Assembly (NCBI GenBank): GCA_017991895.1
Contig: JAGOPR010000003.1
Span: forward strand, 1 to 55,888
Origin: Minisyncoccota bacterium
GTDB taxonomy: Bacteria; Patescibacteriota; Minisyncoccia; Phycocordibacterales; UBA9973
Length of the DNA: 55,888 bases
Direction: 5' to 3'
Shown here: positions 54,005 to 55,888 of the stretch, one piece after another
How positions within the stretch are numbered: position 1 is the stretch's first letter
How the letters are laid out: the number at the start of each line of letters is the position of its first letter
Notes under the pieces: generated by a model
What the model saw: only the letters and a program-made list of their open reading frames with translations
The model's database searches: none
Told to the model about the DNA's origin: nothing
Position numbers and translations under genes: made by a program

Positions 54005-54448
54005 ATGAGTAATTATCTGGACAATCCAAAAGCACGTTTTGATTATGAAATCCTCGAGCGTTTTGACGCGGGGATTGAGCTTTTGGGTTACGAGGTGAAG
54101 TCTGTTCGAGCAGGACACGGCTCTCTTACTGGCGCTCACGTTATCGTCCGAGGCGGGGAAGTCTTTATTGTCGGCTTACGAATAGATCCATATCAGGTGG
54201 GAAATACTCCTCCAGACTACCAAGCAGATCAAACTAGGAAACTTCTTCTTACAAAGAAAGAAATTTACCAGCTTGAGGAATCTGATTCGAAGAAAGGTTT
54301 GACGTTGATACCACTTTCGTTGTACAATAAAGGAGGCAAGATTAAGGTCAATTTTGCAATAGCTCGCGGTAAAAAGAAATTTGATAAACGTGAGACTATA
54401 AAAAAGCGAGACACAGACCGAGATATTCGCCGAGAATTGAAACGTTAG
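54005..54448 (+). CDS. smpB: SsrA-binding protein SmpB
   Basis: DNPKARFDYEILERFDAGIELLGYEVKS...and a basic C-terminal tail. Confidence 0.95.
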   Translation: MSNYLDNPKARFDYEILERFDAGIELLGYEVKSVRAGHGSLTGAHVIVRGGEVFIVGLRIDPYQVGNTPPDYQADQTRKLLLTKKEIYQLEESDSKKGLTLIPLSLYNKGGKIKVNFAIARGKKKFDKRETIKKRDTDRDIRRELKR

Positions 54449-54465
54449 TTTCATTAAGAATTGAA

Positions 54466-54505
54466 TTTAAGCTAAAAAGCTTTACAGCTTTGACGCTTGA
54501 AAGCT
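54466..54505 (+). repeat. Five phased 8-mers ending in (A/C)GCT, ending 6 nt before the tmRNA 5' end
   Basis: TTTAAGCT AAAAAGCT TTACAGCT TTGACGCT TGAAAGCT. Confidence 0.9.
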
Positions 54506-54511
54506 TCCTAC

Positions 54512-54910
54512 GGGGATGAAATGAATAGACAAGAGGTTTCATTTCACGCACGCATGCCGAGTATGGAAACAATCTCGTAAAACTTTTTCCAATTCCCAAA
54601 TGCAATCGCATCTGGAAAATCAATTACTTCTCCGTATTTTGCGCAGAAGGACTTTGATTTCGCGTTCGCCTAAACAGGCCCGCGCGATGTCTTAACTGCC
54701 GATTCCTAATACGTAGTTAGGGCATAATAAACTTAGGATAGGGGACAGAGTTGCTTCACTTTGAACCCAAAACCCACGAAGCTCGGAGTAAATGTGTTTT
54801 GTTGATTTCAAAGCATTTATTCTTAAATCCGCAAGGAATCAAAATTAACTAAGCATGTAGAAGTTCATGGAATCACTTTTTGCACGGCGGTTCGCTACCG
54901 CCCATCTCCA
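54512..54910 (+). ncRNA. ssrA: tmRNA (SsrA)
   Basis: The 5' GGGGATG pairs with the 3' CATCTCC, including a G3:U pair. T-arm GGCGG-TTCGCTA-CCGCC and conserved CTAAGCATGTAG are present. The tag frame runs from GCA at 54602 to TAA at 54671-54673 (...AQKDFDFAFA). The gene lies next to smpB. CCA is not encoded. Confidence 0.9.
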
Positions 54911-54950
54911 CACAAAAGAAAAACACCCAATCGGGTGTTTTTCTTTTGTG
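54911..54950. terminator. Bidirectional terminator after ssrA
   Basis: CACAAAAGAAAAACACCC-AATC-GGGTGTTTTTCTTTTGTG. The helix continues into the tmRNA acceptor strand. Confidence 0.8.
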
Positions 54951-54996
54951 TGGAGATGGAGCGAGACACTTGAGTGTCTCGCGGGCGGTAGCGAAC
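54951..54996. repeat. Inverted copy of the last ~23 nt of ssrA, split by a 23-nt hairpin
   Basis: TGGAGATGG (54951-54959) and GGGCGGTAGCGAAC (54983-54996) are reverse complements of CCATCTCCA and GTTCGCTACCGCCC. The insert is AGCGAGACACTTGAGTGTCTCGC. Confidence 0.9.
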
Positions 54997-55129
54997 GGGC
55001 GCAGGCTTAATTTTTCAGCAGAAAAATTGCCGAGCCGGGGTCGCGACCGAGCCTTCTGACGAGAAGGCGAGAGTTGTGACTCACACCGCGAATCCCAGAT
55101 TCTACCCCTATAAATAAGGCTAGAATCAC

Positions 55130-55159
55130 TTGACAAATAGGCATGTAATATGCTATAAT
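55130..55159 (+). promoter_or_regulatory. Consensus promoter (TTGACA-N18-TATAAT, extended TGC) for 55273-55551
   Basis: It lies within a module of about 78 nt that is homologous to the minus-strand module at 52555-52633. Confidence 0.6.
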
Positions 55160-55272
55160 ACTAGAATAGTTGTTCCTTTACACAGCGTGTTATTGATCGA
55201 GGATTATTCCCACTTGTGGCTTTATGGCCATTGATGGGAATAATCCAAATCAATTAACTAAAATAGGCAAGT

Positions 55273-55551
55273 ATGAAAAATGTAACGCACACCATTCTTC
55301 TTCTCAATTCACTTGGGCAGAGAATTGAATCAGATAAAGCAATGAGTTTTGTTAAACTGGGCCACCTCGTGGCTAGTAAAGCAAATCGTGAACTTAAAGT
55401 TGACCATACTATTTCTGGCAACGATTTGCTAACGGTAACATTTTCTAATGTAAAAAATGCATACGTTGAAGCAACCGCTAACGTTGAATCAATGATGCAG
55501 GTTCTTATGATCCCAAAGAAAAACTTGGATATTAAGATGCTCCCAAATTAG
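55273..55551 (+). CDS. Hypothetical 92-aa protein
   Basis: An ORF with a strong promoter, a 12-bp-stem 5' UTR hairpin (55201-55246) and a terminator. No family recognised. Confidence 0.5.
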   Translation: MKNVTHTILLLNSLGQRIESDKAMSFVKLGHLVASKANRELKVDHTISGNDLLTVTFSNVKNAYVEATANVESMMQVLMIPKKNLDIKMLPN

Positions 55552-55590
55552 AAAGCAGAAAACTACTGTTTAAAAGTTATATTTAATTTT

Positions 55591-55621
55591 AACCCGCACA
55601 CATCGTGCGGGTTAATTTTTT
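55591..55621 (+). terminator. Intrinsic terminator
   Basis: AACCCGCAC-ACATC-GTGCGGGTT followed by AATTTTTT. Confidence 0.75.
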
Positions 55622-55640
55622 AGGACTTTCAAAATTACAA

Positions 55641-55662
55641 GTGCGCGGGTATACCCGCGCAC
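55641..55662. repeat. Perfect 22-nt palindrome
   Basis: GTGCGCGGGTA|TACCCGCGCAC. Its core is related to the hairpin at 24542-24563. Confidence 0.9.
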
Positions 55663-55762
55663 CAAATTTAATGAGGCACCTTCGGTGCGGGACGAAGTTC
55701 TTTCATTAAAATTGGTGTTCGGGTATAATGCGCGAGCAATTAGTTTTTTAATTTTTAAAAAT

Positions 55763-55888
55763 ATGCCCCCACTTAACAACAAAAACCAGAAGAATAACGA
55801 CAAGGCGCCACAAGGAGTTCCTCCTGTAAAAGCTCCTCAGTTTGCTCGCCATATCGCTATGGCCGTGCTTATTTTCATGCTCATTTCG
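55763..55888 (+). CDS. 5' part of a membrane protein gene that runs off the window; identity unknown (FtsH-like N-terminus is only a guess)
   Basis: MPPLNNKNQKNNDKAPQGVPPVKAPQFARHIAMAVLIFMLIS is open to the window end. TATAAT lies at 55724-55729. Confidence 0.4.
   Translation, partial: MPPLNNKNQKNNDKAPQGVPPVKAPQFARHIAMAVLIFMLIS

Follow-up and report, generated by a model that had tools for sequence, protein, structure and literature searches.

The stretch of DNA analysed here, 55,888 nucleotides long and referred to below as the window, carries the tmRNA gene ssrA on its + strand, where the Rfam model RF00023 matches 54512-54913 with 97.5 bits. ARAGORN made no ssrA call at this locus, although Rfam does. 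The tag reading frame of the tmRNA occupies 54602-54673 and encodes AIASGKSITSPYFAQKDFDFAFA*, which is similar to the tags that ARAGORN found in relatives. Directly upstream of ssrA lies smpB, whose product was confirmed as SmpB by Pfam and has relatives in Paceibacterota- and Nomurabacteria-type genomes. On the other side of ssrA, a strong promoter at 55130-55159 serves the next gene.

Between ssrA and this promoter the 3' end of the gene recurs in inverted orientation, as a preliminary description of this DNA had pointed out. For the acceptor part, TGGAGATGG (54951-54959) is the exact reverse complement of CCATCTCCA; for the T-loop and T-stem part, GGGCGGTAGCGAAC (54983-54996) is the exact reverse complement of GTTCGCTACCGCCC. 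The two inverted halves are split by a hairpin with 10-bp arms (hp1 in Table 1). In a repeat search, 54902-54928 and 54933-54959 came out as a perfect inverted repeat of 27 nt with a 4-nt loop between them, together with a second one of 19 nt (89%) at 54885-54903 / 54983-55001. Read from 55108, the minus strand begins GGGGTAGAATCTGGGATTCGCGGTG, and the three hairpins and the palindrome previously named there are present, within ~110 nt of GC-rich sequence. The fold of the + strand from 54880 to 55112 has an energy of -137 kcal/mol, compared with -72 +/- 4 in shuffled sequences (z = -14.9). The interrupted helix of 41 bp that had been proposed for a read-through transcript is indeed part of the predicted minimum-free-energy fold of that strand, in which it would lock up the ssrA 3' end and be followed by three more hairpins. 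Because of this z score and the recurrence of the whole layout in relatives, the arrangement in the window lies far beyond chance.

Positions 54912-55108 are one copy of a conserved, protein-less, structured family in Patescibacteria. Within this copy, 54912-55080 are the element itself and 55081-55108 are a decayed distal repeat of the ssrA 3' end (Table 1). The core is closed by GTGAC at 55076-55080, and hp3 contains G-U pairs at 55039-55081, 55043-55077 and 55045-55075. The inverted arm is still perfect and the distal repeat is largely decayed, surviving only as a degenerate remnant that is interrupted by a mini-hairpin, GAATC-CCA-GATTC (55090-55102). Comparable short inserted hairpins occur in four other loci (L065, L100, L197, L205). 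On the + strand, G-U pairs nevertheless continue to join the decayed distal arm of the window to the 5' arm. The terminator at the left end of the element now terminates ssrA. It appears to have arrived with the element, because the segment that distinguishes a filled from an empty ssrA locus (L003 versus L004, below) contains such a terminator and the native one sits after the distal repeat.

Table 1. Features of ssrA and of the adjoining element in the window
Feature	Position	Strand	Evidence and remarks
ssrA (tmRNA), host gene of the element	54512..54910	+	RF00023, 97.5 bits; A73 = 54910; T-loop 54891-54897
Proximal att-like identity block (ssrA T-loop C56 to C74), partner of the inverted arms	54893..54911	+	Perfect pairing with 54949-54959 and 54983-54996
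Bidirectional intrinsic terminator, apex of the long hairpin	54913..54948		A-tract; stem ACACCC/GGGTGT at 54923-54938; T-run 54939-54947
5' arm part 1, reverse complement of ssrA acceptor 3' strand and trailer	54949..54959	+	Exact complement
hp1, branch hairpin at the acceptor/T-stem junction of the arm	54961..54982	+	Covariation; loop UUGA in the window
5' arm part 2, reverse complement of ssrA T-loop and T-stem 3' strand	54983..54996	+	Exact complement
hp2, core hairpin module	54998..55036	+	Conserved CG(G/C)AG...CGAG internal loop (GGA/GA type), AGCA apical loop; mapped pairs, covariation, consensus
hp3, core hairpin	55039..55081	+	Sequence-conserved base GGGUCGCG/UGUGAC
3' arm, degenerate distal copy of the ssrA 3' end	55081..55108	+	ACCGC retained; relatives show a clear direct repeat here

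A conserved folded family behind tRNA and tmRNA genes

For comparison, 80 loci around SmpB homologues were fetched, giving 81 with the window. A block of ~170 nt stands behind ssrA in L001, L003, L005, L009, L010 and others, and it is absent from the same place in L002, L004, L006, L007 and L008. In three of the filled loci (L003, L009, L010) the block finishes with a direct repeat of the ssrA 3' end. Seven sequences were aligned; their consensus fold has 39 pairs, of which 31 show compensatory changes, and we built a covariance model from this alignment. The model matched the 55.9-kb window only once, at 54951-55100 with 141.5 bits, and placed the element behind ssrA in at least 16 of the 81 related loci. 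It also gave unexpected matches behind tRNA-Ile(UAU) in L042, L056, L061 and L065, where the arms fit that tRNA and not ssrA. Scanning of metagenomes with a pattern for the core produced 120 further loci, in which the model recognised 156 elements. Across 200 related loci, there were 180 model matches in total.

The family order is the 3' end of the host gene, an optional terminator, the anti-acceptor arm, hp1, the anti-T arm (...TCGAA), AAAG, hp2, hp3, GTGAC and the direct repeat. The element measures about 150-200 nt, contains no protein gene and has the orientation of its host gene. Among 91 good copies, 95.9% of the cells of the consensus structure were paired, 37 of the 39 pairs showed double changes and 959 cells were compensatory. 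None of 500 shuffles reached this level, and structures slid by 1-3 columns gave 29-43%. The covariation signal is as strong as in well-established structured RNAs. In hp1, all nine pairs had compensatory changes and 98.3% were paired, with CUGC as the loop in 38 of the 91 copies; the hp3 loop is often GAGCGACGGCGA, and the base of this hairpin, listed in Table 1, is conserved in sequence. A kissing interaction of the hp1 loop (CUGC) with the hp2 loop (AGCA) was considered and dropped, as the two showed no association (16 observed, 16 expected).

The element is associated with genes for tRNA as well as with ssrA. Of the 180 copies, 112 follow a co-oriented tRNA or tmRNA gene at a distance of no more than 120 nt, covering 39 isoacceptors plus tmRNA; another 10 occur as the second copy in an array, and 16 sit at the edge of a contig. 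Of the upstream tRNAs, 117 shared the strand of the element and one lay on the other strand. A direct repeat of at least 8 nt of the host gene 3' end was present in 72 of the 112 copies, compared with 1 of 112 when mismatched tRNAs were used, and an antisense arm match of at least 8 nt to the host gene in 64, compared with 11. Part 1 of the 5' arm co-varies with the local gene both in the ssrA relatives and at tRNA genes. Some copies depart from this plan: they abut the tRNA 3' end, have hp1 as a terminator-like hairpin and lack both arms and repeat. There is also a GC-rich subfamily with no tRNA nearby.

Copies also differ in how they relate to transcription of the host gene. A terminator-like hairpin stands ahead of the core in ~45% of copies, compared with a background of 7%, which suggests that the core is often not meant for transcription from the host gene. 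Over half of the copies follow their tRNA with no intervening terminator ahead of the core. The copy in L148 is among them; it sits between two tRNA genes, tRNA-Arg and tRNA-Val, and must be transcribed; other terminator-free copies lie inside tRNA operons in L141, L100 and L156. CCA was encoded by 16% of the element-bearing tRNA genes and 24% of the others, which as raw percentages is a small difference.

Junctions, alleles and surroundings of the element

The T-loop-to-3'-end segment of tRNA and tmRNA genes is the classical integrase crossover site. The direct repeat of the element begins exactly at T-loop C56 in 35 of 62 copies, abuts the core end GTGAC in 34 of 62, and mostly ends at tRNA position 74, 76 or 77 (range 74-77). 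Insertion has fixed junctions, one after C74 and the other before C56. Filled and empty alleles were found in closely related genomes. Identity between L003 (filled) and L004 (empty) is 90-92% as far as the final base of ssrA, after which L003 carries the element; homology then resumes after the element with a 15-nt overlap equal to the repeat. The pair L001 (filled) and L002 (empty) shows the same clean presence and absence. Where the two copies of the 3' end differ, CCA is on the distal copy and absent from the proximal one, in 8 cases to 0, which fits a native distal flank and an element-borne proximal flank.

Other arrangements point to turnover. Different elements stand in tandem behind a single tRNA in L093, L205, L197 and L152, and L138 contains 3.3 perfect tandem units of 134 nt. 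Ordinary genes, spanning 0.65 kb in L123 and 1.35 kb in L136, are enclosed there by near-identical copies of the element (99%). An apparent T-loop 'intron' with a single 3' end in L123 was discarded, as the distal repeat belongs to a tRNA-Ser 1 kb upstream. Vertical inheritance by tRNA type was ruled out: the nearest-neighbour core came from the same type of tRNA in only 5 of 67 cases, and the cores do not cluster by tRNA type. The ssrA copies by themselves apparently reflect vertical inheritance with repeated loss, for which no mobility is needed.

We looked for known RNA families, partner proteins and vectors. With Rfam 15 at E<=10, the only matches in 54400-55888 were hairpin-type ones (miRNA, ctRNA) over the terminator, attributable to chance, while the core had none, and gathering-threshold scans of 18 further loci returned only tRNA, tmRNA and RNase P; no known RNA family was therefore matched to the core in these scans. 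Clustering of 973 neighbouring ORFs within 2.5 kb of the elements at 120 loci revealed no recurring integrase, transposase, RT, TnpB or Tas. The clusters were housekeeping synteny groups, namely L19, LepA, RbfA, ClpB, RluD, FtsH, MiaA, ParB, RelA and SmpB. Two pattern scans of IMG/VR gave 10 loci, of which nine were chance matches and the tenth (L206), at the end of a contig, is a tandem array surrounded by cellular genes; blastn against phage and plasmid collections gave no match. A phage or plasmid origin was set aside, the family being essentially absent from viral, phage and plasmid collections. TIGR-Tas arrays, with 36-nt box C/D units beside Tas genes, are not comparable.

Weighing the explanations

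Base pairing indicates which strand folds. G-U pairs, which can form on the + strand only, outnumber A-C pairs, the equivalent for the minus strand, by 49 to 6, and a single G-U pair at the base of hp3 is kept in 85 of the 91 copies. The folding strand is the gene-sense (ssrA-sense) strand, because the conserved G-U pairs would be A-C mismatches on the other. The preliminary description had offered a gutted second tmRNA-like gene on the minus strand, or a convergent tRNA-like small RNA of ~160 nt ending at the shared bidirectional terminator. The terminator does have both an A-tract and a T-tract, and in the window the minus strand begins GGGGTAGAATCTGGGATTCG, resembling a tmRNA 5' end. Against these points, neither ARAGORN nor Rfam, even at E<=10, finds a tRNA or tmRNA on that strand, the only RF00023 match being ssrA itself; no promoter-like site lies upstream on the minus strand near 55110-55160; and by sequence the candidate pairs 5 of 7 acceptor positions and has a broken T-stem. 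The 5' motif is specific to the window. It is missing from all relatives compared (L001, L003, L005, L009, L010, L065), in which the position is taken by a simple direct copy of the ssrA 3' end or by some other short hairpin, and it is best read as the complement of the decayed distal arm together with the GAATC-CCA-GATTC hairpin. Because the sense-strand G-U pairs are conserved and the motif is absent from relatives, the minus-strand RNA is rejected, and we regard it as extremely improbable. Scarcely any weight can be given either to the idea that the region is a variable, extended ssrA terminator and nothing more. The long hairpin does have a good intrinsic terminator at its apex (54923-54947), and the arm lengthens the terminator stem, but a conserved core of 110 nt and the repeats lie beyond it, copies stand behind terminator-free tRNAs, and element-free relatives end ssrA with a simple hairpin. 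The suggestion of integration at ssrA fared differently, as the T-loop-to-3'-end repeats, the filled and empty alleles and the tandem arrays all support it. What did not stand is its form as a one-off event, a gutted and functionless relic of a larger genomic island or an inversion, since the window copy belongs to a large tRNA-associated family. Such a relic would account for the direct repeats, which are a classical footprint of integrase insertion, and for the decay of the distal repeat in the window. It is nonetheless improbable: at least 16 of 81 related genomes have the ~170-nt layout behind ssrA, it is also found after 39 tRNA species, the repeats enclose no island genes, and compensatory changes keep every helix, whereas decay would not conserve structure.

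The alternative with most to recommend it, which we consider possible though doubtful, is a structured RNA that is useful to the host or to the element and is co-transcribed with tRNA or tmRNA by read-through or in operons, with a closing helix, made by pairing of the 5' arm to the distal repeat, that mimics the acceptor/T-arm minihelix of the tRNA next to it. RNase P, RNase Z and the CCA-adding enzyme could release an RNA of ~150 nt, and the conserved three-way junction would, on this model, bind a protein or catalyse a reaction; alternatively, the RNA may act on read-through transcripts by sequestering the tRNA 3' end. The very strong covariation with its strand-specific G-U pairs argues for such an RNA, as do the conserved purine-rich internal loops, the terminator-free copies in tRNA operons, the 8:0 bias of CCA to the distal copy, as expected of a functional tRNA-like 3' end, and the G-U pairing that the decayed distal arm of the window keeps with the 5' arm on the + strand. 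However, ~45% of copies and all ssrA copies stand behind an intrinsic terminator with no space for a promoter of their own, and presence and absence between genomes that are ~90% identical show that the element is dispensable. The RNA would also leave unexplained the repeat starts at C56, the mixed tandem arrays and the element-cargo-element layouts. The apical loops CUGC, AGCA and GACG are not usual stable RNA tetraloops, and no Rfam family matched.

We tentatively favour the reading of the family as a miniature, non-autonomous integrative element, mobile or formerly mobile, with a folded attachment site that mimics its target. The fixed T-loop junction, the repeat to the 3' end, the filled and empty alleles, the arrays and the cargo are the footprint of site-specific insertion at tRNA genes, well known from islands that bring their own integrase. 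It is this footprint, together with the formation of a duplex copy of the target on a single strand, that leads us to prefer the integrative reading. On a single strand, the gene 3' end and the inverted arm would pair around the terminator loop, and the resulting hairpin would be a double-stranded copy of the target site, like a folded CTXphi attP or an integron attC. For the window strand, the prediction gave precisely this target-mimic hairpin. The conserved core beside the junction might offer a handle to a recombinase whose gene lies at another place in the genome. The element would then be inserted by exchange at T-loop position 55/56, which would leave the host gene intact and with its own terminator and would push the original 3' end downstream, where it would form the direct repeat. 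We infer the enzyme, the form of the strand (DNA or RNA) and the origin of the tRNA-specific arms. The enzyme that would move the element is purely hypothetical, as no recombinase recurs near the copies and their neighbours are housekeeping genes.

Several observations weigh against the integrative reading. Gene conversion or copying of the target has to be assumed to provide arms for 39 tRNAs. Many copies, namely those abutting a tRNA and the GC-rich tRNA-free subfamily, have neither arms nor repeat. Deep covariation, conserved G-U pairs and tandem G-A internal loops are more typical of a functional RNA than of a site in DNA; more than half of the copies are free of a terminator and the one in L148 must be transcribed. 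No circular or excised form of the element was seen. The integrative element and the structured RNA are compatible, in that an element needing its own RNA for its spread would satisfy both. A further reading, conceivable but not one that we would call likely, is a new kind of structure-dependent mobile module. Its folded single strand would display the acceptor/T-arm of the adjacent tRNA, either as single-stranded DNA that the cell takes up or produces or as an RNA that is cut, CCA-tailed and copied back; host machinery would insert it at C56, and recombining copies would capture cargo, as the element-cargo-element layouts suggest. Such a module would be an integron-like system of gene capture, anchored at tRNA genes, and have no protein of its own.

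Relation to known systems

Islands and prophages of tyrosine integrases at tRNA and tmRNA genes (T-loop sublocation) share with the element the 3' location, the T-loop-to-3'-end direct repeat, the restored host gene, empty and filled alleles, tandem arrays and occasional cargo. In contrast to them, the element is only ~170 nt long, has no integrase or other gene, combines a conserved folded core with the attachment segment in inverted copy, and targets essentially all tRNA species with closely related cores. The CTXphi attP(+) hairpin used by XerCD and the integron attC resemble it in another respect: inverted target-like segments and a spacer fold on one strand to mimic the target, structure is kept while stem sequences vary, and arrays occur with cassette-like cargo between copies. 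Unlike these sites, the element has no associated IntI, its arms are tRNA-specific, and its spacer is a conserved structured core and not a variable loop. By visual inspection only, the element consensus contains no GTTRRRY/RYYYAAC or dif-like box; the conserved junction is GTGAC|C56.

MITEs, IS200/IS605-derived PATEs, REP/BIME and cis-mobilizable elements are likewise short, protein-less, multi-copy, hairpin-rich and intergenic. For the element too, movement in trans is presumed, and its strand-specific folding recalls that of IS200/IS605 ends. The element differs from these in lacking terminal inverted repeats of its own, in that its repeat is a 19-nt target segment with a fixed start and not a short fixed duplication, in having no TnpA or TnpB nearby, and in that copies within one genome have diverged with compensatory changes. 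The tRNA-like noncoding RNAs, represented by the tRNA-like domain of tmRNA and the bacterial Y RNA YrlA (PMC4201824), have in common with the element a closing helix that copies the acceptor/T-arm, a possible NCCA 3' end and a branch hairpin where the D and anticodon arms emerge. The element, unlike those RNAs, has no T-loop, which is replaced by the core, and carries A3-U70 and not G3-U70. It also has no rsr/Ro60 neighbour and no Rfam match, and its arms copy whichever gene adjoins.

What is new in the element is its minute size, the lack of any gene, the strand-specific folded core and the internal inverted copy of the attachment segment. The family is widespread and apparently undescribed; a comparable element was not found in the literature searched, the coverage of which was incomplete so that an earlier description is possible. 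Much of bacterial diversity belongs to the Patescibacteria, which are very small and depend on a host. If our reading is correct, they carry an abundant and overlooked protein-less element, which stands at the 3' flank of ssrA and of a considerable fraction of their tRNA genes. The family would offer a testable system, either for recombination through folded, target-mimicking single strands beyond integrons and filamentous phages, or for a new class of tRNA-like RNA. It explains GC-rich 'orphan' intergenic islands in AT-rich patescibacterial genomes, and its covariance model can be used in annotating metagenome-assembled genomes. The element can also mislead the annotation of tRNA and tmRNA genes, as with the ssrA of the window that ARAGORN missed.

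Encoded 3' ends of ssrA and tRNA genes

The ssrA gene of the window scored 97.5 bits in Rfam and was not called by ARAGORN, as was likewise the case for the ssrA genes of the related loci L001-L009. Its tag frame translates to AIASGKSITSPYFAQKDFDFAFA*, which resembles the tags of relatives, and its 3' end as encoded is ...CUCC-A-CA, not CCA. Most tRNA genes of the comparison loci (L001-L205) do not encode CCA either; N73-C-A-A is a very common 3' end, with CAA in 76 and CCA in 45 of 225 genes.

Variants and duplications of the element

In some elements, including those of the window, L065, L100, L197, and L205, the distal repeat is interrupted by a short additional hairpin that separates its T-loop part from its T-stem or acceptor part (for example GCGTACTCGC, GTGTACCCAC, and GAATCCCAGATTC). 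Eight loci (L092, L095, L111, L112, L131, L169, L177, and L202) form a subfamily with a GC-rich core, in which the 5' arm pairs with itself (GGCCCGG/CCGGGCC) and not with a tRNA, and the loop of core hairpin hp3 is GCTATGC. Many further hairpins sharing this loop surround these elements, most of which lack a neighbouring tRNA; the one in L111 is ~700 nt from an RNase P RNA gene.

Two loci, L123 and L136, contain two near-identical copies of the whole element with its repeat (99% identity over 198 nt and 98.7% over 153 nt, respectively) around ordinary cargo genes, a 183-aa ORF in one and ORFs of 227 and 130 aa in the other. This layout resembles a cassette or a Campbell-type insertion. In L138, a 134-nt unit comprising branch hairpin hp1 and the core is repeated in tandem without any sequence difference (3.3 copies) directly 3' of tRNA-Arg(UCU); the array arose by recent amplification or else is an artefact of assembly.

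Downstream region and reused intergenic modules

The element in the window is followed by a promoter, a leader hairpin, and an ORF without a Pfam match. Strong hairpins cluster 3' of this ORF, and one Rfam match on the minus strand of the cluster, Leu-leader-like and weak (E=0.014), is probably due to chance. The terminator-plus-promoter module 3' of ssrA (AAGAAAAGCCTTAT...TTGACTTTT...) recurs several times within the related locus L003, which suggests that intergenic modules are reused in these small genomes.

Coordinates of features in the window and in related loci
Feature	Location	Remarks
ssrA	window 54512-54913	
ssrA tag frame	window 54602-54673	
Extra distal-repeat hairpin	window 55090-55102	
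Sigma-70-type promoter, perfect	within window 55130-55551	TTGACA, 18 nt, TG-TATAAT; immediately 3' of element
Leader hairpin, perfect	window 55201-55212 / 55235-55246	12 bp; after promoter
92-aa ORF	window 55273-55551	after promoter and leader hairpin
Hairpin cluster	window 55586-55727	
Terminator-like hairpin	window 55589-55615	in cluster
Palindrome	window 55641-55662	in cluster
Inverted repeat	window 55650-55684 / 55693-55727	35 nt, 80%; in cluster
Paired copies with cargo	L123 3072-4111	
Paired copies with cargo	L136 7561-9204	
Tandem units	L138 9480-10060	
Terminator-plus-promoter module repeats	L003 4039-4128, 4627-4708, 5296-5349	compared with L004 3855-3948
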